Source: a bacterium HR35 (GTDB lineage Bacteria; Patescibacteriota; Minisyncoccia; UBA6257; HR35). Taken from it: a stretch of 64,000 nucleotides of DNA. The stretch spans positions 2,264-66,263 of the forward strand of contig BEIL01000003.1 of NCBI GenBank assembly GCA_002898235.1, given 5' to 3'. Of this stretch, positions 7,701 through 56,107 are shown piece by piece. The notes under the pieces are model-generated. The model saw only the letters and a list, made by a program, of their open reading frames with translations. It made no database searches and was not told where the DNA came from. The stretch's first letter is position 1. Each line of letters starts with the position of its first letter. The position numbers and the translations under genes were made by a program.

Positions 7701-8344
7701 TTTTGATTAGCTAACTCTTTTTCTATTTCTTTTTCTAGAGAATCATAACTAGTTAAAGTTACCAACTTTCTATTAACAAAAAAACTTGGCGTTCCTTGAA
7801 GTCCAAACTTTAAAGCTTCACTCCTTTCATTTAGAATTTTTTCTTTTATTTCTTGGTTTTCAAAATCTTTTTTGAATTTATCTAAATCCAAATTCAGGGT
7901 TTTAGCATAGGAAAGAAAAAGTTCTTTTGGATTCGGAGAATTCTTCCATTCTGCTTGTTTTTCAAAAAGAAGGTTATGCATTTCCCAAAACTTTCCTTGT
8001 TTGCTAGCTGCTTCAGCTGCTTGAGCTGCCATTAATGCCTTAGGATGAATTTCGATTAAAGGTAAATGACGATAAATAAAAACAACTTCATCTTTATACT
8101 TTTCTTTTAGAGATTTCACTCTAGGATAAAAAGACTGGCAAGCTGGACATTCAAAATCTGAATATTCAATTACGACAATTTTTGCCTTATTTAAATCACC
8201 TAAAATGTGATCTGTTTCTCTAGGAAAAACATCATATTCTTTTTTAGCCAAGCGAAAACTGCTAACAAATCCCATAAAAACTAAAGAAAAAATAACTAAA
8301 CCAACAAAAATTGTAAAAAAAATGTTGTTTCTATTTTTATCCAT
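7697..8344 (-). CDS. DsbA-family thiol:disulfide oxidoreductase, membrane anchored.
   Basis: N-terminal TM helix, a thioredoxin-fold CPAC active-site motif (FECPACQSF) and the FIYRHLPL region. Confidence 0.65.
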   Translation of the reverse strand: MDKNRNNIFFTIFVGLVIFSLVFMGFVSSFRLAKKEYDVFPRETDHILGDLNKAKIVVIEYSDFECPACQSFYPRVKSLKEKYKDEVVFIYRHLPLIEIHPKALMAAQAAEAASKQGKFWEMHNLLFEKQAEWKNSPNPKELFLSYAKTLNLDLDKFKKDFENQEIKEKILNERSEALKFGLQGTPSFFVNRKLVTLTSYDSLEKEIEKELANQK

Positions 8345-24471: not shown

Positions 24472-25536
24472 ATGAGTCAAACAATGGTTACTGAACAAAA
24501 TCAAGGATTAAAAGTGAAAGTTAAGAATATAACAATAGGTAGTATTTTGGAGGGAGTTGTTATCAGTAAGAAAAAGGGTGAGCTTTTTGTTGATTTGAGT
24601 CCTTTTGGAACAGGAAGGCTTTATGGGATTTTTTTCAAAGAGTGTGAGGATTTAGCAAAAAAAGTAAATGTTGGTGATAAAGTTGGAGTAAAGGTTGTTG
24701 GTTTAAATGATGGTTATGGAAATTTAGAAATTGTTCTTCAAGATACTTTTCAAATTAATCGCTGGCAAAAGATTTTGGAATATCAAAGAAATAAAACAGT
24801 TTTGGAATTGGAAATTAAAGAAGCTAATCGAGGTGGTTGGATTATTGAGCTTGAAGGCATTCAGGGTTTCATTCCTGTTTCTCAACTTTCGCCTGAATAT
24901 TATCCTCGAGTAAGTAATAATGATAAAGAGGCTATTTTAGAACATCTTAAAAAATTTGTTGGTCAAAAAATTAAATGCGTTGTTTGGTTAGCTGATCCTC
25001 AAAAAAACAAGTTAGTTCTTTCAGAAAAATTAACAAAAGCTGAAATTTATCAAAAGGTTTTAGAAAGTCTTCAGGTTGGTCAAATTTTAGATGTTAAAGT
25101 TGTTGGTATCAGTTCCTTTGGTGTTTTTGTTAGGTTTCATACTAACCCTGATATGGATGGTTTAATTCATATTATGGAAATTCCTCCAGAGTTAGCAAAT
25201 GACCTTCAAAAAAATTTTCCTTTAGGCAAAATCTTAAAAGCAAAAATTATTCAAATAAAACAAGATAGAGTTAATTTTTCTCTTAAAGATTTGAGGCCTG
25301 ATCCTTGGTTAATGGTTAAAGAATTTTATCGTGAAGGCTCTCAAGTCCAGGGGCTGGTTAAGGAAAAAAATAATATCTTTGGTGTAGCTGAAATTTCAGT
25401 AGGAGAGTATGGAAGTATTCAGGGTTATGTTTTTGAAGGAGTAGAAAAATTGGAGGTTAATAAGAGCTATAATTTTTTAATCGAAACTTTAAATCCCAAA
25501 GAAAAACATCTTGTTTTAAAACCGATTGATGCTTAG
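24472..25536 (+). CDS. rpsA: S1 RNA-binding-domain protein (short ribosomal protein S1 homologue, about 4 S1 repeats).
   Basis: Repeated G-x-V-x-G-x-V-(x)n-G-V/A-F-V S1 motifs (GSILEGVVISKKKGELFVDL, GQILDVKVVGISSFGVFVRF, and others). Confidence 0.6.
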   Translation: MSQTMVTEQNQGLKVKVKNITIGSILEGVVISKKKGELFVDLSPFGTGRLYGIFFKECEDLAKKVNVGDKVGVKVVGLNDGYGNLEIVLQDTFQINRWQKILEYQRNKTVLELEIKEANRGGWIIELEGIQGFIPVSQLSPEYYPRVSNNDKEAILEHLKKFVGQKIKCVVWLADPQKNKLVLSEKLTKAEIYQKVLESLQVGQILDVKVVGISSFGVFVRFHTNPDMDGLIHIMEIPPELANDLQKNFPLGKILKAKIIQIKQDRVNFSLKDLRPDPWLMVKEFYREGSQVQGLVKEKNNIFGVAEISVGEYGSIQGYVFEGVEKLEVNKSYNFLIETLNPKEKHLVLKPIDA

Positions 25537-28500
25537 AAATAATTATCTTAAATACTTTATTTTAGTTTTCTCTTTAATTCTTTTTTTCTCAATTTTATTT
25601 GTTGGTGAGAAAAAAATCAAAGAAGAGCAAAGCGTTTCTTTTCCTGTATTTTTAGAAAAGGTAAAAAATGGCGAAGTTAAAGAAATTAACTTAGAAAACG
25701 AAACTAATTTTACTTTTATTACTCAAGACAATAAAGTTTTTAATTCGAATAAGGATCCTAATGTTAGCTTTTGGGAAGTCTTCGAAAAAGAAAAAATACC
25801 TAAAGAAGTTTATCTGAAGATTAAAATTACTAAAAAAACAGAAGCTTCTTGGCTTCAACTTTTTCTTTCTTTTCTAATTAATGTTATTCCAATAATAATT
25901 ATTACTTGGTTTATTTGGCAGATTTTCAGACAGACGCAAAGAGGTACAAGTCAAATTTTTTCTTTTGGCAAATCAGGAATTAAAGTTTATAATCCCAATG
26001 ATCCAAATCGAATAACTTTTAAAGATGTAGCTGGCCTTGAAGAAGCTAAACAAGAACTTATGGAAGTTGTTGAATTTTTAAAAAATCCTGAAAAGTTTTT
26101 CAAAATTGGAGCTCGAATTCCTAAAGGAGTATTACTAGTGGGGCCGCCTGGAACCGGGAAAACAATGTTGGCTCAAGCAACAGCCTCGGAGGCTGGTGTT
26201 CCTTTCTTTTATATTTCTGGTTCTGAGTTTGTTGAAATGTTTGTCGGTGTTGGTGCTTCAGTAACTGGAGACACACCGATATTAATAAAAAGAGGAAACA
26301 AAATTAAGTTAACAACTATCGGTAAGTTTGTTGATAAATTTTATCAAGAAAATGAAAGTGGTTTTGTTAAATTTATAGACGGTTATGAAACTTTAGGTTA
26401 TGAACCACAAAGAAAAGTTTATTTTGGCAAGCCAATCTGGACAAATATTCGTGGCGTTTTTAGACATAAAGTCAATGAGATTTATGAAATTTATTTTAGA
26501 GGGGGGAAAATAAAAACAACTGGAGATCATAGCGTTTTTGTCAGAGAAAAAAATAGAATTATTCCTAAAAAAGTAAGTGAATTAAAAGTTGGTGATTGTT
26601 TAGTAAATTTACCATTTAAACGAAGAAGTGTTTTTGTTAAAGGAATAGGCACAACTCATAAGATTTCAACTTTTGATCTTGAAGAAAAAGAGATTTATTT
26701 AGATTTATATGAGAAAGAGTATAATAAAGCTTTGTTTAGTTACCAGTTTGCTTTAGAAAATAGAAATATTTTGAGTCAAGCGAAAATAGGAAAAATTTTA
26801 GGATTAGCGCAGACTACAATTAAAGATTGGCAATTAGGAAGGAGAAGGCCGAAAATATTTTCGAGCTTTAATATCTTTAGATTTAAAATCCCGCCTAAAA
26901 TAAAAGTGGATTTAGATTTGATGAAACTTCTTGGCTATTATGTTGCTGAAGGGAGAACAACAGATTATTTCACTCAATTTGTTTTTGGGATTCATGAAAG
27001 AGATTTGATTAAAGATTGTTCAAATTTAATTGAAAAGATTTTTAACATAACACCCCATATCAAAGATTGTCCTGAAACTAACTCCTGTCGAATTACTATT
27101 TACTCATCAATTATTAGCAAATTTTTTAAAAAGCACTGTGGTACTGGGGCCAAGAAAAAGCATATTCCTCCTTTCTTGTGGCAAATTCCCTTTCCTTATT
27201 TCAAATCATTTTTAGAAGGTCTTTACAGGGGTGATGGTTACATTACAAAAGAAGGAAAGTTAATTATTACCACAACTTCAAGAAGGTTAGCTTTAGAGCT
27301 TATTTGGCTTTCGGCTCTCCATGGAATTCAAGTTGGACTAAGAAAAACAAAATCGCCTGAAAGAAAAATAAGAGAGAAAATTCTTAAGCCATCTAAATAT
27401 TACCTAGTAATTTTTGGAAAGACATCTAATCCTTTTCTTAAAAATAAAAAGACTTCTCAACCTAAAAAACCAATAATAACAAAAATAATTAAAAAACCCT
27501 ATGATGGTTATGTTTATGACCTTTGTGGTTGTGATAATGAAGCATTTTTTGGAGGAGAAAAACCTATTTTACTTCATAACAGTCGCGTCCGTGATGCATT
27601 TTCTGTTGCTAAAAGAAATCAACCTTGTTTAACAGGTGATACAATTATTACTTTAAGCAATGGAGAAGAAATTACTATTAAAGAGATTTATGAGAAAAAA
27701 TTGATTGGCAAAGAGGTTTTAGCTTTTGATGAAAATCTTAATCTTAAAACCGCAAAAATAATTGGTGTTAGCAAAACACCCGATCAAGAAATATTAAAAA
27801 TATCTACAATCATCGACACCATAAAATTAACTCCCGATCATCTTTTACCTACTTTGAAAGATGGCAGGTTAGAATGGGTAGAAGCCAAAGAACTAAAAGA
27901 GGGAGATTTCATAGCTTATCCAAAGAAAATTCCTGAAGAATTTAGGATTCAATCAATAAGAACTCTAACTTTGATTCCTGAAGAAACAAGAATTTACTTC
28001 AAAAACAATTGTCTGCCTAAAATATATGGAAATAAAAAGTATTATCATTCAGTTAAATTAAAAGAAATATATTTAGATAAAATTGACGAAGAAAACATTG
28101 CTTGGATTGCTTTAGGCAAAGGTGGTTTTACTGATTCTTATCTCTACAGAATACCAAAATATTTGAATGAAGATATTCTTTATCTTAAAGGCTTAATAGA
28201 TGGTGATGGTTCTTATCATAAAAACAAATTCAATATTACTTTTGTTAATACTGAGTTGTATCTTCACCAAGAAGTTAAAAAGATTGTTTTAGATAATTTT
28301 GGAATTTCTGCGAAGACTTATAAAAACAAAAAATATTATCGCAATCTTCCTCAAGGGAAACCACCTCAAAATCTTAAAGATTGTTATACCACTCATATTA
28401 ATAACAAGTTAGTTAAAATCATCCTGAAAAACATTGATGAGATTCTTCTTTCTTTACCAAACAATCTTATAGCTGCTTGGATAAGGGGCATTTTTGATAG

Positions 28501-30151
28501 TGATGGTTATGTAGCCAGTATCAAAAATCATCCCAAGATTGTAATTACTTCTACTGACGAAACGTTGAACAAAAAAATTAGATCTGCTTTATTAAGATTA
28601 GGAATAATTGGCTATTGCACTGCTTCTAATAATTTTGGTAATATTGAAATTACAGGAAAGGAAAATATTAAACGTTTTAGAGAAATAGTTGGCTCTAATC
28701 ATCCTAAGAAATTGCAGAGATTAAAAAATTTAAATTTAGAAGGAGTAAGATTTTGGCGCTTAAATCAGATTCCATTAGGTTTGTTGCTTAAAGAAGCTAG
28801 GATTTCTTTAGGGATAGGGCAAAGGAGTTTTAAAAATGGGCATATGATTTCTTGTTGGGAAAGAAATATTCATTTACCATCTTTAGAGAATTTGGAAATA
28901 AAAGTTAAAGAAATGGAGAAAATAATTAGTGAAAAAAATTTATCTCCAACTCAAAGCTTTGAAAAATTAAAATCATTTGTCTACGGTGATGTAAGTTGGG
29001 TAAAAATTAAAAAAATTGAAAAAGTAAATCAAAAAGAAGACGTTTATGATCTTATTTTAGATAAATATCATAATTTCATTGCTAATAATCATTTTGTTCA
29101 TAATTGCATTTTGTTCATTGATGAGCTTGACGCTATTGGAAAAATAAGAGGAGCGGGAATTACTGGCGCTCATGAAGAAAGAGAGCAAACATTAAATCAA
29201 ATTTTAGTTGAAATGGATGGTTTTGAAAAAGGAACAAAAGTCGTTGTTTTAGCGGCGACAAATAGACCTGATGTTCTTGATCCAGCTCTTCTTCGTCCAG
29301 GAAGATTTGACCGCAAAATTGTTTTGGATTTGCCTGATATTAAAGCTAGAGAGGAAATTTTAAAAATTCATTTAAGAGATAAAAGAGTTGGTAAAGTTAA
29401 TTTAAGGCAAGTAGCTGAAAGAACTCCTGGTTTTTCTGGAGCTGATTTAGCTAATTTATGTAATGAAGCTGCAATTTTAGCAGCCAGAAGAAACAAAGAA
29501 TTTATCACTCAACAAGAACTTTTAGATTCAATTGAAAAAGTTTTATTAGGTCCAGAAAGAAAAACAAAAGCCTATTCAAAAAAAGAAAAAGAAATTGCTG
29601 CTTATCATGAAGCTGGCCATGCCATTGTTGCTCATTATTTGCCTTATACTAATCCAGTTCAAAAAATTTCAATTATTTCTCGCGGTCGAGCAGGTGGTTA
29701 TACTTTAAAAACACCCCTTGAAGACAGAAGCTTTTATTTTAAGAAAGAATTTTTAGATGAATTGGCTTCAATGCTTGGTGGTTATGCTGCTGAAAAATTA
29801 ATTTTTAACGATATTACTACTGGAGCCAGTAATGATTTAGAAATTGCTACTGATTTAACTAGACAATTAGTAACTAAATTTGGAATGTCAGAAAAACTTG
29901 GTCCAATTTCAATCTCCCAAAAACCAAAAGAATTTGTTTTAGAAAAAGAGTACTCTGAAAAAACAGCTGAACTTATCGATGAAGAAGTAAAAAATATTAT
30001 TCACCAAGCATTAGAAAGAGCAACAAAGGTTTTAGAAATTAAAAAAGATAAATTAGAAAAAGTTGCTCAAGTTTTAATCAAAAAAGAAGTGATTGAGAAA
30101 AAACAATTTGAGAGATTAGTTGGCGAGAAAAAAGGAAGTTTAAATATTTAA
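25526..30151 (+). CDS. ftsH: ATP-dependent zinc metalloprotease FtsH, interrupted by two in-frame inteins; the mature extein is about 607 aa.
   Basis: Walker A GPPGTGKT, the FVEMFVGVGA | SRVRD | CILFIDELDA extein blocks, the HEAGHA zinc site and an N-terminal TM anchor; a 1541-aa ORF. Confidence 0.9.
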   Translation: MMLRNNYLKYFILVFSLILFFSILFVGEKKIKEEQSVSFPVFLEKVKNGEVKEINLENETNFTFITQDNKVFNSNKDPNVSFWEVFEKEKIPKEVYLKIKITKKTEASWLQLFLSFLINVIPIIIITWFIWQIFRQTQRGTSQIFSFGKSGIKVYNPNDPNRITFKDVAGLEEAKQELMEVVEFLKNPEKFFKIGARIPKGVLLVGPPGTGKTMLAQATASEAGVPFFYISGSEFVEMFVGVGASVTGDTPILIKRGNKIKLTTIGKFVDKFYQENESGFVKFIDGYETLGYEPQRKVYFGKPIWTNIRGVFRHKVNEIYEIYFRGGKIKTTGDHSVFVREKNRIIPKKVSELKVGDCLVNLPFKRRSVFVKGIGTTHKISTFDLEEKEIYLDLYEKEYNKALFSYQFALENRNILSQAKIGKILGLAQTTIKDWQLGRRRPKIFSSFNIFRFKIPPKIKVDLDLMKLLGYYVAEGRTTDYFTQFVFGIHERDLIKDCSNLIEKIFNITPHIKDCPETNSCRITIYSSIISKFFKKHCGTGAKKKHIPPFLWQIPFPYFKSFLEGLYRGDGYITKEGKLIITTTSRRLALELIWLSALHGIQVGLRKTKSPERKIREKILKPSKYYLVIFGKTSNPFLKNKKTSQPKKPIITKIIKKPYDGYVYDLCGCDNEAFFGGEKPILLHNSRVRDAFSVAKRNQPCLTGDTIITLSNGEEITIKEIYEKKLIGKEVLAFDENLNLKTAKIIGVSKTPDQEILKISTIIDTIKLTPDHLLPTLKDGRLEWVEAKELKEGDFIAYPKKIPEEFRIQSIRTLTLIPEETRIYFKNNCLPKIYGNKKYYHSVKLKEIYLDKIDEENIAWIALGKGGFTDSYLYRIPKYLNEDILYLKGLIDGDGSYHKNKFNITFVNTELYLHQEVKKIVLDNFGISAKTYKNKKYYRNLPQGKPPQNLKDCYTTHINNKLVKIILKNIDEILLSLPNNLIAAWIRGIFDSDGYVASIKNHPKIVITSTDETLNKKIRSALLRLGIIGYCTASNNFGNIEITGKENIKRFREIVGSNHPKKLQRLKNLNLEGVRFWRLNQIPLGLLLKEARISLGIGQRSFKNGHMISCWERNIHLPSLENLEIKVKEMEKIISEKNLSPTQSFEKLKSFVYGDVSWVKIKKIEKVNQKEDVYDLILDKYHNFIANNHFVHNCILFIDELDAIGKIRGAGITGAHEEREQTLNQILVEMDGFEKGTKVVVLAATNRPDVLDPALLRPGRFDRKIVLDLPDIKAREEILKIHLRDKRVGKVNLRQVAERTPGFSGADLANLCNEAAILAARRNKEFITQQELLDSIEKVLLGPERKTKAYSKKEKEIAAYHEAGHAIVAHYLPYTNPVQKISIISRGRAGGYTLKTPLEDRSFYFKKEFLDELASMLGGYAAEKLIFNDITTGASNDLEIATDLTRQLVTKFGMSEKLGPISISQKPKEFVLEKEYSEKTAELIDEEVKNIIHQALERATKVLEIKKDKLEKVAQVLIKKEVIEKKQFERLVGEKKGSLNI
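26258..27580 (+). mobile_element. Intein 1 in FtsH (441 aa; Ser1 ... His-Asn, +1 Ser) with a LAGLIDADG-type homing-endonuclease domain.
   Basis: Starts with SVTGDTPIL (block A with Ser as the nucleophile) and ends ILLHN|SRVRD. LAGLIDADG-like motifs are LLGYYVAEGRT and LEGLYRGDGYI. It is inserted between FtsH GVGA and SRVRD. Confidence 0.75.
27626..29104 (+). mobile_element. Intein 2 in FtsH (493 aa; Cys1 ... His-Asn, +1 Cys) with a LAGLIDADG homing-endonuclease domain.
   Basis: Starts with CLTGDTIITL (classic block A) and ends FVHN|CILFIDELDA. LAGLIDADG motifs are LKGLIDGDGSY and WIRGIFDSDGYV. It is inserted immediately before the Walker B region. Confidence 0.8.
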
Positions 30152-46312: not shown

Positions 46313-46945
46313 TTAAATTCTCTTTTTTATTTCATTTAAAAGCGACCAGAGGGTATGATAGTAATTTCTTTTTGGGCCTAAAAATAAATAGCTTCTTTTA
46401 GGTTGATTAACAAAACCTAAAGCTAATTCTCCTGTCTTAGAAATCTTTATTTCTTTTCCTATTTTAATCCCTATATCTTCTGAAATTAAATCAAAAGTAG
46501 ACAACAAATATTCAATCAAATCTAGGGCATCAACTAAGCTTTCTTTTTTCTGAGCTAAGCCATCAGCTAAATAATTTAATCCTTTCAAGAAGCTTTTTCT
46601 ATTCTCCTCGATAACTATTAAAGCGCTTCTTGAAAAATAAAGGTATTTTTTAATGCTTTCTTCCAAATTTTGGTAATTTAATTTTATTTCTGGATTTAAG
46701 TTAAAACCAAAAAGATAATACTTCCAACCTTTATCAGAGGGCAATCTACCCTTGAAATCATATGAATTAAGAATTAAACCTTTTTTAGCCAATCTTCGAA
46801 AATATAGCCTTAAGAGCGGAGGGGAAAATTTAAAATTTAATGTCTTGGCTAAATATTTAGAGCCAATAGGTCTATTTTTTTTAAGATAACATCTAACAAA
46901 ATGATAAAAGATAAATCTTTCTTTAGGTTGAAGCATTTTAATCAA
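46313..46945 (-). CDS. hrcA: Heat-inducible transcription repressor HrcA, short form (210 aa versus about 340).
   Basis: N-terminal winged helix SPPLLRLYFRRLAKKGLILNSYDFKGRLPSDKGWKYY aligns with HrcA SSATIRNEMADLEELGLL..PHTSAGRVPTDKGYRYYV; it is the first gene of the grpE-dnaK-dnaJ operon. Confidence 0.65.
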   Translation of the reverse strand: MIKMLQPKERFIFYHFVRCYLKKNRPIGSKYLAKTLNFKFSPPLLRLYFRRLAKKGLILNSYDFKGRLPSDKGWKYYLFGFNLNPEIKLNYQNLEESIKKYLYFSRSALIVIEENRKSFLKGLNYLADGLAQKKESLVDALDLIEYLLSTFDLISEDIGIKIGKEIKISKTGELALGFVNQPKRSYLFLGPKRNYYHTLWSLLNEIKKRI

Positions 46946-47535: not shown

Positions 47536-47739
47536 ATGCAATTTCAAAATAAAAAAGTTATGTTAGCAGTTGTTGTTGCTGTTTTAGTTGTTTTAGCTGG
47601 TGTAACTTATTGGTTTTTCGGCCGAAAATCAGCTTCGGTCCCATCACCAAATTTACCTCCAGCTCCAGAGGTAGTTCCTCAAGAACCAACAGCAACAGAA
47701 ACCCCTTCTTCGCCAGCAACTCCTACTCCTCAGGAGTAA
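47536..47739 (+). CDS. Small membrane-anchored protein with a Pro/Thr-rich extracellular tail.
   Basis: TM helix MLAVVVAVLVVLAGVTYWFF, then PSPNLPPAPEVVPQEPTATETPSSPATPTPQE; a strong terminator follows. Confidence 0.35.
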   Translation: MQFQNKKVMLAVVVAVLVVLAGVTYWFFGRKSASVPSPNLPPAPEVVPQEPTATETPSSPATPTPQE

Positions 47740-47768
47740 TAAAAATTTAAAAAATTAAAAAAAGAAAA

Positions 47769-47799
47769 GGGCGGAGCAATTAACTCCGCCCTTTTCTTT
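47769..47799 (+). terminator. Rho-independent terminator (gggcggag / ctccgccc stem, 7-nt loop, T-rich tail).
   Basis: A GC-rich hairpin in an otherwise AT-rich intergenic region, seen directly. Confidence 0.8.
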
Positions 47800-47853: not shown

Positions 47854-48927
47854 ATGAAAAGTTTAATCGAAGATTTGCTTAGAAATAACTTAAAAGAAAG
47901 AGAGGTTTTGATTATTAAAAAAAGATTTGGTTTAGAAGAGGATGAAGAACCTTATTCTTTGGAAGCCATTGGGAAAAATTTAGGCATTACCCGAGAAAGA
48001 GTCAGACAAATTCAAAACAATGCTCTCCAAAAAATCAAAAAAGCGATAAATGATAATCCGAAAATAAAGGATTTTATTAAAGAAGTAAAAAGCTTGCTTG
48101 AACCCCTAGGAGTTAGAGAAGAAAGAAATTTTTATAAATTGCTAATAGAAAAAAAAATAGTCCGAGAGAGAGAAATTAATTATTTAAAATTTATTTTTAT
48201 TAATCATCAAGAAATTCATTATCATCCTGAAGATAAAGATTTAAACAGCTTCTATGCTAAATCTGAAGATTGGGCATTTTTCTTTCGCCATCTCTTAAAA
48301 AAAATAACGATTTATTTTTTAGAAAATAATAAAGAGATTTTTGAAGAAAATAAAATTTTCGAAATAATTGCTAAAGAGTTAAAAGCTCACTTGGCTGATT
48401 TAGAGCTTCAAGATTATTATGAGATTTTGAGAATTCTCAAGCCAGTTTATAAAAACCCTTTTGGAAAATGGGGATTTATTACCAATCATTTTGTTGTACC
48501 TTCGTCTTTAAAAGAAAAAATTTTAACGATTCTTAAAATTGAGGGCAAACCTCTTCATTTTACTGAAATTTATAATAAAATCTCTCAAGTTAGTGAAATT
48601 AGCGATGAATTTGTTCATCCAGCTTGGAAGAAAAAATATTCACTTGATTCAATTAAAAATGAGCTTATCAGACATCCAGAATTTGTTTTAGTGGGAAGAG
48701 GAATTTATGGTTTGAAAGAATGGGGATTTAAAGAGGGAACAGCTTTTGAACTTCTTAAAGAATTTTTAGCTTCTAAAAAAGAAGTTGATTTTGAAGAATT
48801 GATTGAATTTTTTAAAAATCAGCGTTTTATTAAATTAACAACCTTGAATATTTATCTCTATAGGCTTTTAAAAAGTAGATTTATTAAATTTGAAAAAGGA
48901 AAAATTAAAGTAGTCAAAAATGCTTAA
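47854..48927 (+). CDS. Protein with an N-terminal sigma-70 region 4.2-like HTH fused to a domain of about 290 aa of unknown function.
   Basis: [52 protein letters not shown] versus this genome's own RpoD region 4, [50 protein letters not shown]; the 10-mer [10 protein letters not shown] is identical. Confidence 0.55.
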   Translation: MKSLIEDLLRNNLKEREVLIIKKRFGLEEDEEPYSLEAIGKNLGITRERVRQIQNNALQKIKKAINDNPKIKDFIKEVKSLLEPLGVREERNFYKLLIEKKIVREREINYLKFIFINHQEIHYHPEDKDLNSFYAKSEDWAFFFRHLLKKITIYFLENNKEIFEENKIFEIIAKELKAHLADLELQDYYEILRILKPVYKNPFGKWGFITNHFVVPSSLKEKILTILKIEGKPLHFTEIYNKISQVSEISDEFVHPAWKKKYSLDSIKNELIRHPEFVLVGRGIYGLKEWGFKEGTAFELLKEFLASKKEVDFEELIEFFKNQRFIKLTTLNIYLYRLLKSRFIKFEKGKIKVVKNA

Positions 48928-50257
48928 TTTTATAAACTATTTTTTATCTGATTTTATTAATCTTTTTTTAAATTTTTGGTGGTTAGTTTTACCAGTAATC
49001 TCAACCTACCTTTTTATTGAAAAATACCATCAAGATAAAATAAAAACGTTTGTTAAAGAGAAACTTAAATACAAATTTCTAGAAATTACTTTTCCGGAAG
49101 AGTCAATTAAAAATCCAAGATTAATGGATGAAGTTTTAGCTTCTCTTCATTCAACAGCTACTAAGTTTTCTTCTTTAAAACAATTTTTTACCGGTTCTTT
49201 TCCCTTAGCTTATATTTTTCTTTTAGAATTTCATGATAAAAAAATCAGATTTTTTATTGGTGCTTCTGAATCTCTCTTTCAATTTATTAAAACTTCTTTT
49301 TACAGCAAATACCCAGAAATAAAATTTAAAGAAAGTGAAACGCCACTTAAAAAATTTGATTTTAATCTACCCAATCCTCTTTTTGATGGTCTAATGTTTG
49401 ATGTTTTACCAGAAAACCCTGATTTTGTAATTTTAAAAACTTATAAAAATTTAGAAAAATTACCGCCAGAAGAAAGAATTGATCCAGCTTCTGTTTTTTG
49501 GGAATTAAAAGAAGCTATTTCTAACAAAGAATGGCTTTATTTTATCATTTTTGCCTTACCAGTTTTAGCTGATGATCCTATTTTAGGAAAAAATTGGGTT
49601 GGAGTTTATAAATCTATAATAGATGCAATCATTGGAAAACCAAAACCACCAGCTCCTAAATCATTTGATTATTATCTTCATGAGTTTTTTAAAAATCTTT
49701 TGGCTGAATTTTATAATATTTTTCTTGGTAGTTTTTTTAAAGCAGAACAGCCAATTGAATGGACACCAATTAAACCTCAACCAGCTCCACCTTTTGAATT
49801 TAATATTGGAAAATTAACGCCTGAACAAAAAGAAATTATCGATTTGATTTTAGAAAAAATTAAAAAACCAGGCTACTTAGTTAAAATTGAAGTTCTTTAC
49901 TTAACTCAAAAAATCAATTTTGAAAAAACTAAAAGTTATATTCCTTCTTTAATCCTTTCTGCTTTTAAAAATTTTACTTTTGAAAATTTAGGCAAAATTA
50001 AATTAGAACCCTTTTTTAAAATTTCTTCAACTGAACCACTTTACCAATTTAAAAACTTTCTTTTAACCTTAGCAAGTTTTGATAGTTTAAAAAAACACAA
50101 GGCTCTCATAATTAAAGCTGTTAAATTGACTAAAGATATAGCAGCTCCTAAGATGAAGTTTATTTTAAATACAGAAGAATTAGCGACTATTTTTCATCAC
50201 CCTTTAAAAATCGAAAGTAAAAGAAAAGAGGAATTAGAACCATCTTTCTTAAGCTAA
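48920..50257 (+). CDS. Hypothetical membrane protein (N-terminal TM), translationally coupled to the flanking genes.
   Basis: N-terminal TM helix FWWLVLPVISTYLFI; 8-nt overlap with the upstream gene; no motif recognised. Confidence 0.3.
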   Translation: MLNFINYFLSDFINLFLNFWWLVLPVISTYLFIEKYHQDKIKTFVKEKLKYKFLEITFPEESIKNPRLMDEVLASLHSTATKFSSLKQFFTGSFPLAYIFLLEFHDKKIRFFIGASESLFQFIKTSFYSKYPEIKFKESETPLKKFDFNLPNPLFDGLMFDVLPENPDFVILKTYKNLEKLPPEERIDPASVFWELKEAISNKEWLYFIIFALPVLADDPILGKNWVGVYKSIIDAIIGKPKPPAPKSFDYYLHEFFKNLLAEFYNIFLGSFFKAEQPIEWTPIKPQPAPPFEFNIGKLTPEQKEIIDLILEKIKKPGYLVKIEVLYLTQKINFEKTKSYIPSLILSAFKNFTFENLGKIKLEPFFKISSTEPLYQFKNFLLTLASFDSLKKHKALIIKAVKLTKDIAAPKMKFILNTEELATIFHHPLKIESKRKEELEPSFLS

Positions 50258-50269
50258 AATTATTTAACT

Positions 50270-51766
50270 ATGGAAGAAAGAATTATTTTAGGTAAAATAG
50301 TTTATCGAGAAAGAGAAGAATATTTTTCCTTAACTAAAGAAGATCGACGAAAACATTTTTATGTTATCGGAAAAACTGGAACAGGAAAAACAACTTTGCT
50401 TTTAAATATGTTAATTCAGGACATTAGGAATGGTGAAGGTGTTGGTTTTTTTGATCCCCATGGCGATGCTTTGCTTAAGCTTTTAAAATATATTCCTCAA
50501 GAAAGAATTGAAGATGTTGTTTTTCTTAATCCGGCCGATTTAGATCATCCTTTTGCTTTTAATCCCTTAGAAGATGTTGATTATTATAAAAGAACTTTAG
50601 TTACTTCAATGATTTTGTCTGTTTTTAAAAAAATCTGGCAAGATGCTTGGTCGGCTAGAATGGAATACATTCTTCAAAACTCAATTTTAACTCTTTTAGA
50701 ATATCCTGGCTCTACTCTTTTAGATATTAATCGACTTTTAGCTGATGATTCTTTTAGAAAGAGAGTAGTAAGTCAACTGAAAGATCCAGTAGTTAAAGCT
50801 TTTTGGGAAAATGAATTTGATAAATATCACCTTCAATTTAGAACAGAAGCGATTGCGCCAATTCAAAATAAAGTAGGTCAATTTATTGCTAATCCTCTTT
50901 TAAGAAATATTATTGGTCAAAGAAAAAGTACTGTTGATTTAAGTGAAATTCTTAATGAAGGGAAAATCTTTTTAGTTAACTTAGCTATTGGTCAAATAGG
51001 AGAAATTAGCGCCCAGCTTTTAGGAGGACTATTAATCAATGCTCTTTATTTAAAAGCAATGGAAAGGGTTAATATTCCTGAAGAAGAAAGAAGGGATTTT
51101 TATCTTTATATTGATGAGTTTCAAAATTTTGCTACCGAATCTTTTGTTAATATTCTTTCGGAAGCAAGAAAGTATAGATTCAATCTTATTTTAGCCCATC
51201 AATTTTTAGACCAACTTGATGAATCTTTAAAAAAAGCTATTTTAGGTAATGTTGGTTCAATGATGGTCTTTCGGGTAGGAACAATTGACGCTCAAATTTT
51301 CTTTGAAGAATTCGAAAGATTGGTTTCTTTAGAAAGTTTTCTTAACCTTCCTAGTTATTATGCTTATGTTAAAATTCTTTATCAAAATAAACCTCAAAGG
51401 CCATTTTTGGCTCAAACACTTCCTTTAGAGACAGAACCTGAAGTTAGTTATCTTGATGAAATTCTAAGTTATAATCATCTTAAATATTCAGCTCCTAGAG
51501 AAATAGTTGAAGCTCGAATTAGAAGAATTTATTTATCTTCAAAAAAAGAAGATTTTCTAATTTGTCGTCTTTGTGGAATTCAATTCCCCAATGATGAAGA
51601 TATTGAAATTTGCCCTAATTGTCGTCAAAGAGCTTTTGTTAAAGGAATTAGTTTAAAAGAATTAGCCAAAAAAAATTTTAGCGTTAAAATAAAAAAAGAG
51701 GAAAAAAATAAAAAGGTCGATCTTGATTCAATTTTAAAGAAATTAGAAGGAAATGAAAGTCAGTGA
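50270..51766 (+). CDS. TraD/TraG/VirD4-family (type IV coupling-protein-like) P-loop ATPase, soluble form with a C-terminal zinc ribbon.
   Basis: Walker A VIGKTGTGKTT; a Walker B / TraG-D_C-like block YLYIDEFQNFATESFVNILSEARKYRFNLILAHQFLDQL; a C-terminal CRLCG...CPNCR ribbon; no N-terminal TM helices. Confidence 0.45.
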   Translation: MEERIILGKIVYREREEYFSLTKEDRRKHFYVIGKTGTGKTTLLLNMLIQDIRNGEGVGFFDPHGDALLKLLKYIPQERIEDVVFLNPADLDHPFAFNPLEDVDYYKRTLVTSMILSVFKKIWQDAWSARMEYILQNSILTLLEYPGSTLLDINRLLADDSFRKRVVSQLKDPVVKAFWENEFDKYHLQFRTEAIAPIQNKVGQFIANPLLRNIIGQRKSTVDLSEILNEGKIFLVNLAIGQIGEISAQLLGGLLINALYLKAMERVNIPEEERRDFYLYIDEFQNFATESFVNILSEARKYRFNLILAHQFLDQLDESLKKAILGNVGSMMVFRVGTIDAQIFFEEFERLVSLESFLNLPSYYAYVKILYQNKPQRPFLAQTLPLETEPEVSYLDEILSYNHLKYSAPREIVEARIRRIYLSSKKEDFLICRLCGIQFPNDEDIEICPNCRQRAFVKGISLKELAKKNFSVKIKKEEKNKKVDLDSILKKLEGNESQ

Positions 51767-52310
51767 TTTAGCCAAAGGAGATCATTTGAAATTAGAAGGA
51801 AAAATTTTTGAAGTTGTCGAAATTAAACATTCTCATTTGGGCAGAGGCTCAGCTAATTTAACTTTAGTTTTAAGAAATGTTCAAACTAATCAACGGATTG
51901 AAAAAACCTTTAAACCCGATGAACAAATTGATTATTTGGAAGTTGAAAAAGAAAAATTGGTTTATAGTCATCGAGACAGTCAAAATTTTTATTTTAAAAG
52001 AGATAGCCAGCTTATTTCTTTGCCAACTAAACTCTTTGAAAATTTAAGTAAATTCTTAAAACCGAACTTAGAAGTTTTAGGTTATTTTAGCGAAGATGAA
52101 GAACTTCTTTGGGTAGAGTTGCCTAAAATCGTTGAATACTTAGTTGTTGAAACTGGACCTGACTTTAAAGGAAGTACAGTTCAAAGCAGTTATAAGCCAG
52201 CTAAAATTGAAACTGGCTTAGAAATTAAGGTTCCTTTTTTTATTAAAAATGGCGATTTGATAAAAGTCAATACTGAAACTGGAGAATACGTCGAAAGGGT
52301 ACAAAAATGA
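51753..52310 (+). CDS. efp: Elongation factor P (Arg-type loop).
   Basis: 185 aa, three-domain EF-P layout. The loop HSHLGRGSANLT aligns with E. coli FVKPGKGQAFAR, so the modified Lys34 position is Arg. Confidence 0.75.
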   Translation: MKVSDLAKGDHLKLEGKIFEVVEIKHSHLGRGSANLTLVLRNVQTNQRIEKTFKPDEQIDYLEVEKEKLVYSHRDSQNFYFKRDSQLISLPTKLFENLSKFLKPNLEVLGYFSEDEELLWVELPKIVEYLVVETGPDFKGSTVQSSYKPAKIETGLEIKVPFFIKNGDLIKVNTETGEYVERVQK

Positions 52311-53938
52311 AACTCGATGAACTTCAAAATAAAATTGACATTCTTGAGGTGGTTCAAAAATATGTCAAGCTCAAACGAGTAGGCAAATATTATGCTGGTC
52401 TTTGTCCTTTTCATTCAGAAACTAAACCTTCTTTCTATGTTTCTCCTGAAAGGCAGATTTTTAAATGCTTTGGCTGCGGCGAAGGAGGAAATGTAATCTA
52501 TTTTTTGATGAAAATTGAAAATTTAAGTTTTCGGGAGGTTTTAGAAAAACTTAAGGAAGAATATGGTTTAGAAATAGATAAAATTTCCCAGTCAAAAATT
52601 TCTTCTAAAATTTTAGAAATAAACTATGCGGCCTTAAAATTTTTTCGCCAACAACTTAACACTAACTATCTTGAAGCTAAAAATTATTTAATTGAAAGAG
52701 GATTAACTCAAAAAACAATCGAAGACTTTGAATTAGGTTATTCACCTGGGGGGACAAGTCTAAGAGACTATCTTTACGCCCAAGGTTATTCTTTAGAAGA
52801 ATTAAAACAAGCTGGGCTTTTAGATGAGAACAATTTTGACCGGTTTCAACAAAGAATTATTTTTCCTTTAAGAAATGAGAAAGGTGATTTAGTTGGTTTT
52901 ACTGGTAGGATTTTTCCTGAAAAAGAAAAAGCTCCTAAATATCTCAACACTCCAGAAACTGATGTTTTTAAGAAATCAGAATTTCTCTATGGACTTTTTT
53001 ACTCTAAAGATTATATTTATTCCCAAAAAGAAGCAATTATTGTTGAGGGTCAGATTGATTTTCTTTTAAGTTTTCAAAATGGCTTAAAAAATATTGTTGC
53101 TGTTTCTGGTTCAGCCTTAACTGAAACTCATTTAAGAAAAATTAAAAAATATACTTCCAACTTAGTTTTAGCTTTTGATAATGATGAAGCGGGTTTTAGG
53201 GCTTCATTGCGAGCTAATCTTTTAGCTCAGAAATTAGATTTTCAAGTTTATCAATTGATCTATGACGAGAAAGATTTGGGTGAATTTTTTAAAAACAAAA
53301 GAGATTTAGCTGAAATCAAAAAAATCTACTTTCTTGATTATCTTTTAGAAACCTTAGACAAAAAATTTGGCCAGGGAAATAAAAAAACTTATCTTGAAAT
53401 TTTTTTACCTCAAATCCAAAACCTAAACCTTTCTGAAAAAGATAAATATTTAGATATTTTGTCCCAAAAATTAAATATTCCTAAAGATTTTCTTTTTGAA
53501 GAATTAAAGAAAATGCCGGCTTCTTTAACTTTTTCAGAAGAAGAAAAAATAGTTCCTGTATTGGATTTTGAAAAAAACCTATCTTTAAAAGCTGTTAGTC
53601 TTATTTATGCTTTCAATCTTAATGTTTTTGAAGAGGAATTTATTCCTTTTTTGAGTGAAGAAGCTAAAATTATTTATCTTAAATTTAAGGAAAATAATTT
53701 GACCTTTGAAGAAATAGATGAATTAGAAATGAGAAAGAGATTTTTTGAAGAAACTAGAATTAATCCTCAAAAAGAATGGGAAAAAACTCTAAAAGAGTTA
53801 AAAAGGATCTATTATAAAAAAACCATAGAAAAATTAAAAGAAGAACTGCGGTTTAGCTCCTCAGAGAATTATGATAAAATTATTCAAGAAATCAATTATT
53901 ATCTTCAAGAATTAAGAAAAATTGAAAAAAATGGCTAA
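52307..53938 (+). CDS. dnaG: DNA primase.
   Basis: Zinc-binding [13 protein letters not shown]...CFGCGEGGN, a TOPRIM region (EGQIDFL...DNDEAG); ATGA overlap with efp. Confidence 0.85.
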
Positions 53939-55016
53939 AAAATCTTTAAAAATAGATAAAAAGATTAATGCTAAAATCAATTATCTTATTAAGAAAGGGA
54001 AAGAAAAGGGTTTTATTTTAGAAGATGAAATTTTAGATTTATTTCCTACAATTGATGAAAAACTTGAGCTTTTAGAATATATTTATGAAAGATTAGAAAC
54101 TGCTGGAATTGAAATCCAAAGCTCGAATAATCGCTGGGAATTAACTAAAGAAGAAATTGAAAAATATCTAGGTCATGATGATGAACTGATTGATGCTACT
54201 CAAAAATATTTAATGGAAATCTCCCGCTATCCCCTTTTAACTCCAGAAGAAGAAAGAGAATTGGCTAAAAAAGCATCTCAAGGAGATGATGAAGCTCGAG
54301 AAAGATTAATAAAATCAAATTTAAGATTAGTTGTTAGTATTGCTAAGAAATATTTAGGCAAAAGTCGGGGACTTACTTTTTTAGATTTGATTCAGGAAGG
54401 TAATATTGGTTTAGCTAAAGCCGTTGATAAATTTGACTGGCGTCGAGGTTTAAAATTTTCTACCTATGCCACTTATTGGATTCGGCAAGCAATTACTCGA
54501 GCTTTATCTGATCAAGCTCGAACTATTAGATTACCTGTTCATATTATTGAAACTTTTTATAAATTAAATAAAGTTAAAAAAAGATTAAGTAGTATTCTTA
54601 ATCGAGAACCAACTCCTGAAGAATTAGCTTCAGAAATAGGCTTACCTACAAATAAAGTTCAAAAACTCCTTAAATATCTTCATGATACTATTTCTTTGGA
54701 AACACCTATTGGTGATGAAGGTGATGCTTTACTTAAAGAGTTAATTCCTGATTTAAATACCGAAACTCCAGACAAAGTAGCAGCTATAAGCGTTTTAAAA
54801 GAACAACTAAAAAAAGCTATTTTAGATTTAAGTCCCAAAGAAAGAAAGATTATTAGCTTGCGTTATGGTTTAGAAGATGGAACCGAACATACCTTAGAAG
54901 AGATTGGAAGGATTTTTGGAATTACTCGCGAAAGAGTAAGACAAATTGAAATTAGAGCTTTAGAAAAACTTAGAAATCATCCATTAATTCTTAAAATTAA
55001 AGAACAAGAGTTTTAA
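53922..55016 (+). CDS. rpoD: RNA polymerase sigma factor RpoD (primary sigma-70).
   Basis: Region 2 [16 protein letters not shown]...[16 protein letters not shown], region 3 and region 4.2; the classic dnaG-rpoD arrangement. Confidence 0.9.
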
Positions 55017-56107
55017 TGTTTTATCGGAAATATCGACCAAAAAATTTCAGTGAGGTAGTTGGCCAAGAAATTGTTATTAGAATTTTAAAAAATATGATAA
55101 AAAGAGGTGAGATTTTACATGGCTATCTTTTTGCTGGTGAACGAGGAACAGGCAAAACCACTGTAGCCCGAATTTTTGCCAAAACAGTTAATTGTCTTAA
55201 TCCTCAGGAAGGAGAAGCTTGTGAAAAATGTCAAATTTGTAAATTATGGAACGAGGGTAAGTTTTTAGATATTGTCGAAATTGATGCTGCTTCTCATAGA
55301 AAAATCGATGATGTCAGAAGTCTTCAAGAACATATTGGCTTTAAACCTCTTCAAGGTAAATACAAGGTTTTTATTATTGATGAAGCTCATATGTTAACCG
55401 AAGAAGCTTTTAACGCTCTTTTAAAAACTTTAGAAGAACCACCAAAGCATGTAATTTTTATTTTAGCTACCACTGAACCAAGTAAAATTCCCCCAACTAT
55501 TCTTTCTCGGCTTCAAAGATTGGATTTTAAAAGAATTTCTCTGCCTCAAATTGTTGAAAAACTAAAAAAAATTTTAGAAAACGAAAAAATCGATTATGAA
55601 GAAGAGGCTTTATATTTAATTGCTGAAGAGGCTGAGGGTTCTTTAAGAGATGCTGAAACTTTATTAGAAAAAGTAGTTATTAGTTTAAATCCTGAACCAA
55701 AAATTACTCAAGATTATGTTGCTGAATTTTTGGGTCAAATTAGTACTAACAAGGTTTTGAATTTTTTAGATAATCTTTTAGACAAAAAAACAGATTTAGC
55801 TTTAGAATTTTTACATGATATTTACAAAAACGGCTATGAAATATCCAGTTTTTTAAAATCATTAATTAAAATTTTAAAAGAGATTATTTTTATCAAAGTT
55901 AATAAAAATTTTGCTAAACATCTCTCCAGCGAAAGATCTTCTGAAATAACTGATAAAATGATTGAAATTGCTTCTAAAGCTGATTTGGAAACTTTTAAAA
56001 AACTTTTAAGACTCTTTTTTGAAGCTGACTCTCTTTTGAGAAAAGAACCACCTCATCCTCTCCTTCCTTTGGAAATAGCTGTTATTGAGTTCGTTAGTTT
56101 AAGGTGA
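55016..56107 (+). CDS. dnaX: DNA polymerase III subunit gamma/tau, short form (363 aa).
   Basis: FYRKYRPKNFSEVVGQE, Walker A GERGTGKTT, a zinc module CxxC...CxxC, and SRLQRLDF. Confidence 0.8.
   Translation: MFYRKYRPKNFSEVVGQEIVIRILKNMIKRGEILHGYLFAGERGTGKTTVARIFAKTVNCLNPQEGEACEKCQICKLWNEGKFLDIVEIDAASHRKIDDVRSLQEHIGFKPLQGKYKVFIIDEAHMLTEEAFNALLKTLEEPPKHVIFILATTEPSKIPPTILSRLQRLDFKRISLPQIVEKLKKILENEKIDYEEEALYLIAEEAEGSLRDAETLLEKVVISLNPEPKITQDYVAEFLGQISTNKVLNFLDNLLDKKTDLALEFLHDIYKNGYEISSFLKSLIKILKEIIFIKVNKNFAKHLSSERSSEITDKMIEIASKADLETFKKLLRLFFEADSLLRKEPPHPLLPLEIAVIEFVSLR

Follow-up and report, generated by a model that had tools for sequence, protein, structure and literature searches.

What is the role of a protein that carries region 4 of a primary sigma factor and no other sigma region? 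The question is raised by an open reading frame (ORF) at positions 47854..48927 of a 64,000-nucleotide stretch of DNA from bacterium HR35 (GenBank assembly GCA_002898235.1, contig BEIL01000003.1, positions 2,264 to 66,263 of the forward strand; hereafter "the window"). HR35 is a member of the Patescibacteria, or Candidate Phyla Radiation (CPR). A preliminary description, made from the letters of the window alone, had read the gene as a stand-alone sigma-70 region 4.2 fused to an unknown domain of 290 amino acids (aa). Here, we describe the encoded protein as a complete sigma region 4 (sigma4) followed by four predicted winged-helix domains, and show that it belongs to a core CPR family whose members have one architecture and a length of about 350 aa. 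We tentatively favor the explanation that it is an essential factor specific to the CPR: it would bind -35 elements, might bind RNA polymerase too, and would also be coupled to a membrane ATPase.

Judged by its homology, the N-terminal module spans all of region 4 (4.1, 4.2, and the C-terminal tail helix) and is of the primary-sigma type. The Pfam family Sigma70_r4 (PF04545) matches aa 12-63 with 51.9 bits against a cut-off of 24.1 (E = 5.5e-14), and in NCBIfam the module is matched best by the final 70-75 positions of the RpoD, RpoS, and SigA models, over aa 1-77. In a profile search of the Protein Data Bank (PDB), positions 1-78 of the family profile align to crystal structures of sigma region 4 (1e-20 to 1e-15); the module is therefore the full region rather than region 4.2 alone, as first described. 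The N-terminal part of the structural model superposes on region 4 of Thermus sigmaA at 0.8-1.7 Å, with 41-46% identity (Foldseek, PDB). The preliminary description had also called the module nearly identical to the RpoD of the same window. This holds for the recognition helix, of which a stretch of 10 residues is the same in both proteins, but not for the domain as a whole, which is only 51% identical (26 of 51 residues by BLASTP against the RpoD encoded at 53922..55016; E = 2e-10).

All PDB and NCBIfam sequence matches of the module are to region 4 of group 1 or group 2 sigma factors (RpoD, SigA, RpoS), and neither GerE/LuxR (PF00196) nor Sigma70_r4_2 matches at E <= 0.1 in Pfam. Pfam, NCBIfam, PDB, and Foldseek thus agree on sigma region 4 specifically. 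A generic helix-turn-helix (HTH) of the LuxR/GerE type and a region 4 of the extracytoplasmic function (ECF) type, neither of which gave a Pfam match, are ruled out; to the former, taken together with a decayed sigma fragment (see below), we leave next to no probability. The absence of sigma regions 1 to 3, on the other hand, was correctly noted from the start: Sigma70_r1, r2, and r3 are not found in the protein (Pfam, E <= 0.1), in a scan in which the window's RpoD matches regions 1.1, 1.2, 2, 3, and 4.

Compared with primary sigma factors (RpoD/SigA, RpoS), the protein thus shares the fold of region 4, 41-51% of its residues, an identical recognition helix (TRERVRQI), and the residues that contact the -35 element. 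It differs in that regions 1.1, 1.2, 2, and 3 are absent, four winged helices are added, and the activator-contact positions are not conserved. With those regions missing, it can neither bind the core clamp nor melt the -10 element. We therefore reject a functional sigma-70 family factor, since region 2, which provides core binding, -10 recognition, and melting, is absent although region 4 is present. An ECF-type sigma paired with a membrane anti-sigma is likewise rejected: the gene order alone resembles such a pair, there is no region 2, and the only Pfam family of the downstream protein, seen in its relatives, is DUF8128. The names given to family members by automatic annotation, "sigma factor-like HTH DNA-binding protein" (NCBI) and "RpoS" (PROKKA), are annotation shortcuts.

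A region 4, or a protein in its place on the flap, does occur on separate polypeptides elsewhere. Two-part sigma systems include SigO-RsoA of Bacillus subtilis and gp55/gp33 of phage T4, and small phage proteins with Sigma70_r4 alone also exist. These proteins are either 90-140 aa long or unrelated in sequence, whereas the present family has four extra domains and is encoded by a core chromosomal gene. Unlike in the two-part sigma systems, no region-2-like partner is encoded in the module.

We find that the residues that would read the -35 element are kept almost without exception. About 90 family members were aligned to the C-terminal sequence of Escherichia coli sigma-70; R584 to Q589 fell as expected in this alignment. 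We take R554, R562, T572-E574, T583-R586, R588, and Q589 to be the -35 contacts, as reported for the structure of sigma4 on -35 DNA (1KU7; Campbell et al. 2002). At these 11 positions, the window protein has the same residue as E. coli everywhere except for S35 in place of T572 (Table 1). The equivalents of K593, R596, and R599, which are activator-contact positions of sigma-70, vary freely in the family. The sigma4 module thus appears to be under strong selection for its DNA-reading residues. Because these are essentially invariant, -35-type DNA binding can reasonably be inferred, and the module would read TTGACA-like hexamers on duplex DNA.

The C-terminal 290 aa, described at first as an unknown domain, resolve in an AlphaFold model into four tandem winged-helix domains. 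The model was built from an alignment of 56 homologs and has a mean predicted local distance difference test score (pLDDT) of 95.7 and a predicted template modeling score (pTM) of 0.85, with pLDDT remaining high to about residue 350. It places sigma region 4 at aa 2-67, followed by winged-helix units at aa 69-135, 138-208, 219-287, and 297-353. Its best whole-chain Foldseek matches in the PDB are tandem winged-helix proteins: UFL1/DDRGK1, a C-terminal fragment of SelB, and Dcc1. A sequence-profile search of the PDB with the C-terminal 290 aa gave nothing significant, the best match being a MarR protein (E = 0.024).

By sequence, the third winged helix is most probably a HARE-HTH (PF05066), which matches 47 of the 56 family members at E <= 1e-3 (best, 7.8e-17). 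Its closest characterized relative appears to be the N-terminal domain of the RNA polymerase delta subunit. Alignment with that domain of B. subtilis delta by hhalign gave E = 5e-4 with a probability of 30%, and TIGR04567, the model for delta, matches weakly (19.9 bits against a cut-off of 42; E = 6e-4). The likeness to Firmicutes delta (RpoE) is confined to this domain. In the present family the HARE-HTH is embedded in a five-domain protein, and the chain ends in a folded, basic winged helix, without the long acidic disordered tail of delta. With the score below the TIGR04567 cut-off and this tail absent, we reject the identification of the protein as a delta subunit proper. Rather, it is predicted to carry a delta-like HARE-HTH inside a rigid array of four winged helices.

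This architecture is uniform and widespread in the CPR. A search with aa 70-357 alone, among 1.84 billion cluster representatives, found 556 representatives at 50% identity (E <= 1e-10), nearly all of them 330-400 aa long. A full-length search gave thousands of matches; among those listed, family members have 330-390 aa with PF04545 and PF05066, and come from Parcubacteria, Paceibacterota, Minisyncoccia, Moranbacteria, WS5, and others. A scan of one genome per GTDB species confirmed relatives in at least 598 of them, almost all Patescibacteria/CPR. The 80 loci taken from these span Saccharibacteria, Moraniibacteriota, Wildermuth-, Uhr-, Kerfeld-, Pacei-, Peregrini-, Gracili-, Andersen-, Buchanan-, Azam-, Falkow-, and Doudnabacteria, Peribacteria, and Kazan. 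In these loci, 90 of the 93 family ORFs carry both the sigma4 and the C-terminal profiles, and contig ends truncate the remaining three. The gene is thereby also ruled out as the decayed remnant of a second sigma factor, given that all 90 complete members share an architecture of 330-430 aa and that the model is confident over its full length. Nine metagenome-assembled genomes (MAGs) from co-assemblies that hold family members are labeled Gammaproteobacteria (L015, L030, L061, L066, L070, L076, and L083) or Bdellovibrionales (L073 and L088). Most of these show the typical CPR module, and the non-CPR labels are probably wrong.

In viral sequences the family is close to absent. A single relative was found among 2.9 million viral contigs, and a fold search of the viral structure database BFVD gave only pieces of sigma4 or of a winged helix. 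A mobile-element or conjugative context is rejected on the basis of that single viral match and of housekeeping flanks that differ between lineages. Anti-phage defense is rejected too: the PADLOC matches were limited to the sigma4 part of MzaA (2e-9) and to mad8/HerA-type matches of the ATPase, with no defense-system architecture. Our literature search found no paper describing or testing the sigma4 and winged-helix family, and Meheust et al. 2019 does not discuss it. The family is already catalogued under automatic database names and in two supplementary tables, and its individual domains are known. The uncharacterized part is the combination: this architecture, its constant pairing with DUF8128 and a coupling-protein-like ATPase, and a gene that is apparently essential.

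The partnership was seen first in six homolog contigs with called genes, in which the gene always lies directly 5' of a DUF8128 (PF26449) gene, and a TrwB/TraD-like ATPase either follows DUF8128 or is fused to it as a protein of about 1,100 aa. We then surveyed 89 loci by our own ORF calling and iterated profiles. A DUF8128 homolog is present in 85 of the 89. In 73 it stands immediately downstream on the same strand, with a gap of -23 to +289 nucleotides (nt). The three-gene set is kept as a unit across the superphylum. Of the loci with DUF8128 downstream, 55 have the ATPase as a separate gene and 9 have it fused to DUF8128; a further 9 (e.g., L002, L008, L029, L040, and L041) have DUF8128 adjacent, and no ATPase gene was found in the locus. 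In locus L034, the ATPase alone follows the sigma4 gene. Loci without a downstream DUF8128 are mostly cut by a contig end or belong to a divergent group. In six loci (L016, L027, L033, L043, L075, and L085), several of them labeled Peregrinibacteria/Peribacteria, a fused gene (834-902 aa) lies 4-5 kb upstream in divergent orientation. Neither DUF8128 nor the ATPase was found within 8 kb in locus L015. Two sigma4 and winged-helix paralogs occur within 8 kb in five of the six divergent-group loci.

In the window, the 8-nt overlap between the sigma4 gene and the next gene (48920..50257), as previously described, follows from the coordinates. The latter encodes the family's most constant neighbor, and its assignment to PF26449 was made through homologs. 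A structural model of the DUF8128 protein (pLDDT 87.8) has a long N-terminal helix and alpha/beta domains. A fold search gave a weak likeness to TrwK/VirB4 (E = 6e-3, TM 0.3), which is a lead only; a PDB sequence search of the protein gave no match, and our literature search found no paper mentioning DUF8128. Assignment of the third gene to the TraD/VirD4 type was borne out by matches to TrwB_AAD_bind, TraG-D_C, T4SS-DNA_transf, and TraD models in Pfam and NCBIfam, and by matches to TrwB and DotL. The ATPase has no membrane segment. Many lineages encode DUF8128 and the ATPase as one fused protein, so the two are taken to form one machine, and together they look like one membrane-anchored, coupling-protein-like motor. 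The ATPase also matches phrog_5156, a phage family of unknown function (E = 6.6e-59, profile positions 401-809 of 824), whose profile length equals that of the fused DUF8128-ATPase form, and the PADLOC model mad8 (5.4e-18).

Homologs of this ATPase type are abundant in the CPR. A 2025 survey counted 5,713 VirD4-type homologs across 2,918 genomes of Patescibacteria, of which just 148 lay close to virB4, and considered those far from virB4 to be possibly exapted for other functions (PMC12102498). In 88 of our loci, the recurrent neighbors are SecDF (29), AlaRS (23), MnmA (22), TopA (15), SecA (13), and DprA (13). Neither a relaxase nor type IV secretion system (T4SS) channel genes (VirB4, VirB6, etc.) are among these neighbors, of which only the recurring ones were annotated. 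The window's gene is flanked by hsp20-grpE-dnaK-dnaJ and by efp-dnaG-rpoD-dnaX, with no relaxase or T4SS context. A conjugative relaxosome accessory or T4SS recruitment module is rejected on the ground that relaxase and channel genes are not among the annotated neighbors.

The balance of explanations is shifted by published transposon insertion sequencing (Tn-seq) of Southlakia epibionticum (Wang et al. 2023, Cell, PMC10633639). Its gene SEML1_0294 (1050 bp; PROKKA name "RpoS") has PF04545 at aa 27-72 and PF05066 at aa 225-283, and its four ECOD domains are listed as sigma-70-like, winged, winged (e7f75L1), and winged (PMC10633639). The reference for e7f75L1 is chain L of 7f75, the B. subtilis delta subunit. 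SEML1_0294 is flagged as core and Patescibacteria-enriched, and as essential at all three time points (ES/ES/ES), insertions falling from 24 in the input to 1-2 afterward (PMC10633639 Tables S1, S2). Essentiality at T0 places a gene in class I, which is enriched in information processing (PMC10633639). Downstream lies SEML1_0293 (2766 bp, TrwB_AAD_bind at aa 402-719), which has the fused DUF8128-ATPase form (921 aa) and is non-essential (NE/NE/NE; 82 insertions in the input, 87-120 afterward) (PMC10633639). Upstream, SEML1_0296 is topA (PMC10633639). This order matches that of the Saccharibacteria loci L039, L053, L054, L060, and L074. Length (about 350 aa), PF04545 plus PF05066, the four ECOD domains, and the downstream DUF8128-coupling-protein gene all agree with the family; the difference is that the partner there is one fused protein, and in the window two genes. 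The text of the Tn-seq paper mentions neither SEML1_0294 nor SEML1_0293 (PMC10633639).

Because SEML1_0293 is dispensable, polarity on the ATPase cannot explain the essentiality of SEML1_0294. By the same comparison, the sigma4 protein must do something that does not need the ATPase. If the orthology holds, its essential role is independent of the ATPase.

The upstream regions of family genes were compared with other intergenic upstream regions. TTGAC occurs within 150 nt upstream of 67 of 84 family genes (80%) versus 91 of 403 controls (23%), and CTTGAC upstream of 42% versus 3%. At least two TTGAC are present upstream of 23 of 83 family genes. In the 150-220 nt upstream, the family genes of loci L002-L088 very often carry (C)TTGAC(A/T), about 15 nt, and TGnTAtaAT, a textbook promoter; these regions show that TTGACA and an extended -10 are indeed in use at CPR promoters. 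What the motif search found was thus a strong consensus promoter and no distinct operator, a result that does not separate the hypotheses.

We propose that the protein is a sequence-specific binder of double-stranded DNA, in which the sigma4 module would recognize TTGACA-type -35 elements and the winged-helix array would contact flanking DNA, RNA polymerase, or both. It would be a general, essential promoter- or polymerase-associated factor of the CPR, neither a sigma factor nor an operon-specific regulator. Its functional coupling to DUF8128 and the VirD4-like ATPase might mean that it is tethered or controlled by the ATPase, or that it brings DNA to it. That it binds TTGACA, contacts RNA polymerase, and physically touches DUF8128 or the ATPase is all inferred, and several observations weigh against the proposal. 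A purely transcriptional role leaves the very tight synteny with a membrane ATPase unexplained, and an essential gene beside a dispensable partner is also what would be expected of a repressor of, or antidote to, a harmful partner. The window gene's own upstream region is without TTGAC. The HARE-HTH of the window protein (aa 218-290) scores below the PF05066 cut-off (23.9 versus 25.9 bits, E = 5.5e-5). Furthermore, SEML1_0294 is an apparent ortholog, identified from architecture, length, and gene order in published tables.

Alternatively, the protein would be a DNA-recognition or loading subunit that hands DNA with a specific motif to a membrane-anchored hexameric motor of DUF8128 and the VirD4-like ATPase. 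This is possible, though we regard it with some doubt. Analogous partners of FtsK/VirD4-type ATPases are the FtsK gamma domain, a winged helix that guides FtsK/SpoIIIE, with KOPS; Streptomyces TraB with clt; TraM with TraD; and TrwA with TrwB. Like them, the present family has an HTH/winged-helix module of the DNA-binding kind whose gene is tied to that of a membrane-anchored ATPase of the FtsK-HerA/VirD4 class. Near-universal adjacency with often overlapping stop and start codons, the DUF8128-ATPase fusion in many lineages, an ATPase with intact Walker A and B that matches TrwB and DotL, and the thousands of "orphan" coupling-protein homologs far from virB4 in CPR genomes (PMC12102498) are all consistent with it. 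A dprA-topA pair next door, in 13-15 of 88 loci, points the same way, yet it is adjacent only in this minority. Unlike the known partners, however, the family has no homology to them and no relaxase/oriT context, and no relaxase or T4SS channel gene recurs nearby. Above all, the ATPase of S. epibionticum is dispensable where the DNA binder is essential.

That same pair of Tn-seq results is the classic pattern of a regulator or antidote, as would be seen if the protein were an operon autoregulator acting on its own -35 element to restrain a potentially harmful ATPase, and essential only because derepression is toxic. The sigma4 gene is first in its operon, and the enrichment of TTGAC and CTTGAC upstream of the family genes would fit as well. 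We think this unlikely. When aligned, the TTGAC sites look like ordinary strong promoters that have an extended -10 and call for no special explanation, the window's own upstream region has no such site, and the Peregrinibacteria/Peribacteria-labeled loci have the ATPase in a different transcription unit. Nor would an operon repressor need RpoD's exact reading residues and four conserved domains throughout the superphylum. We regard as still less probable a DNA-independent polymerase subunit or decoy, the second idea of the preliminary description, with sigma4 on the beta-flap tip helix and the HARE-HTH at the delta site, competing with or replacing region 4 of RpoD. The C-terminal tail helix of sigma-70 (L607 region) contributes to flap binding, and the homology to RpoD runs through this helix to about aa 78. 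Both modules bind RNA polymerase in their native contexts, and essentiality at the first time point would suit such a role. Near-total conservation of the DNA-contacting side chains would be unnecessary if DNA were not contacted, however, and an acidic tail like that of delta is absent. Export of the protein as an effector through the coupling-protein-like ATPase into a host bacterium, where it would hijack the host RNA polymerase, has very little probability in our judgment. Coupling proteins are substrate receptors (PMC12102498), and cultivated CPR bacteria are epibionts with a T4SS, but the presumed receptor is dispensable and the protein essential. Moreover, the sigma4 protein is essential at T0, when the T4SS genes are classed as GD, becoming essential only later, and neither a signal sequence nor a disordered C-terminal tail is seen, with pLDDT high to about residue 350.

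Table 1. Features of the sigma4 gene and its partners in the window, and the residues of the sigma4 protein aligned with E. coli sigma-70.
Feature	Position	Strand	Description
G+C-rich hairpin	47761..47799	.	17-bp stem, 8 G-C pairs, A and T runs either side (terminator scan)
Sigma4 + 4 winged-helix protein gene	47854..48927	+	ATG start, 357 aa; Patescibacteria-wide family member
Complete sigma-70 region 4 (predicted), aa 1-67	47854..48054	+	Four helices 2-12, 15-24, 36-43, 47-67; homology runs on into tail helix to ~aa 78
Winged-helix domain A (predicted), aa 68-136	48055..48261	+	H69-82, E87-89, H90-99, H105-117, E122-124, E133-135; no sequence family assigned
Winged-helix domain B (predicted), aa 137-210	48262..48483	+	C-terminal conserved NPFGxWG motif, G207 invariant; weak MarR-type match
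Winged-helix domain C = HARE-HTH (predicted), aa 211-292	48484..48729	+	Motifs PLHFxEI, FVLVGRGIYxLKEWG
Winged-helix domain D (predicted), aa 293-357	48730..48924	+	Most basic domain, 15 K+R vs 9 D+E
DUF8128 (PF26449) protein, 445 aa	48920..50257	+	One N-terminal transmembrane helix ~aa 15-33, then alpha/beta domains
Soluble VirD4/TraD/TrwB-type ATPase, 498 aa	50270..51766	+	Walker A aa 34-41; Walker B YLYIDE 278-283; C-terminal CxxC...CxxC
R16 = sigma-70 R554			R 73%, K 26% in family
R24 = sigma-70 R562			100% in family
S35 = sigma-70 T572			T in 96% of family; window protein has S
L36 = sigma-70 L573			100% in family
E37 = sigma-70 E574			85% in family
T46 = sigma-70 T583			98% in family
R47 = sigma-70 R584			98% in family
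E48 = sigma-70 E585			100% in family
R49 = sigma-70 R586			98% in family
R51 = sigma-70 R588			100% in family
Q52 = sigma-70 Q589			98% in family

The window is AT-rich (29.4% G+C), and the strong terminator that had been described before the sigma4 gene was recovered by a terminator scan as a hairpin at 47761..47799. It is likely a bidirectional intrinsic terminator, dividing a small upstream ORF from the three-gene module. That ORF (47536..47739, +; 67 aa) lies just 5' of the hairpin and has a hydrophobic N-terminal segment, a Pro/Thr-rich tail, and no Pfam match; locus L001, from a 60%-identical relative, has a 63-aa gene called at the equivalent place (7711..7902). On the other side of the hairpin, seven co-directional genes at 47854..56107 (+) encode the sigma4 protein, DUF8128, the ATPase, Efp, DnaG, RpoD, and DnaX. 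Their junctions are an 8-nt overlap, a 12-nt gap, and then overlaps of 14, 4, 17, and 1 nt, so the sigma4 gene may be the first on a transcript that extends over the genome's own rpoD. L001 has the same seven-gene order, and S. epibionticum, where dnaG-rpoD lie elsewhere, does not.

Two further observations concern other parts of the window. A 210-aa ORF (46313..46945, -) lies between hsp20 and grpE-dnaK-dnaJ, the usual position of hrcA; it has no Pfam match, and L001 has a 203-aa gene there, also without a recorded Pfam family. The FtsH encoded at 25526..30151 (+; 1541 aa; FtsH_ext, AAA, Peptidase_M41) is broken up by intein sequence, with two Intein_splicing stretches, three LAGLIDADG_3 stretches, and one Hom_end match. 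It probably holds two inteins in its AAA domain.

A large part of bacterial diversity belongs to the CPR/Patescibacteria, in which transcription control is almost unknown. The gene described here is found throughout the CPR and nearly absent outside it, is built of two modules that bind RNA polymerase elsewhere, and has an apparent ortholog listed as essential in the only genetically tractable CPR organism. Its fixed pairing with DUF8128 and a VirD4-like ATPase is also relevant to the role of the approximately 5,700 coupling-protein homologs that lie far from any T4SS (PMC12102498). A bolder conjecture, which we hold to be unlikely, is that the protein is an essential and hitherto unrecognized accessory subunit of CPR RNA polymerase, seated on the beta-flap and the delta site and reading the -35 element, and that it physically links promoters or transcribing polymerase, via DUF8128, to a membrane VirD4-like motor. 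If true, this would be a transcription-to-membrane coupling device without counterpart in studied bacteria, and would explain the "orphan" coupling proteins of the CPR.

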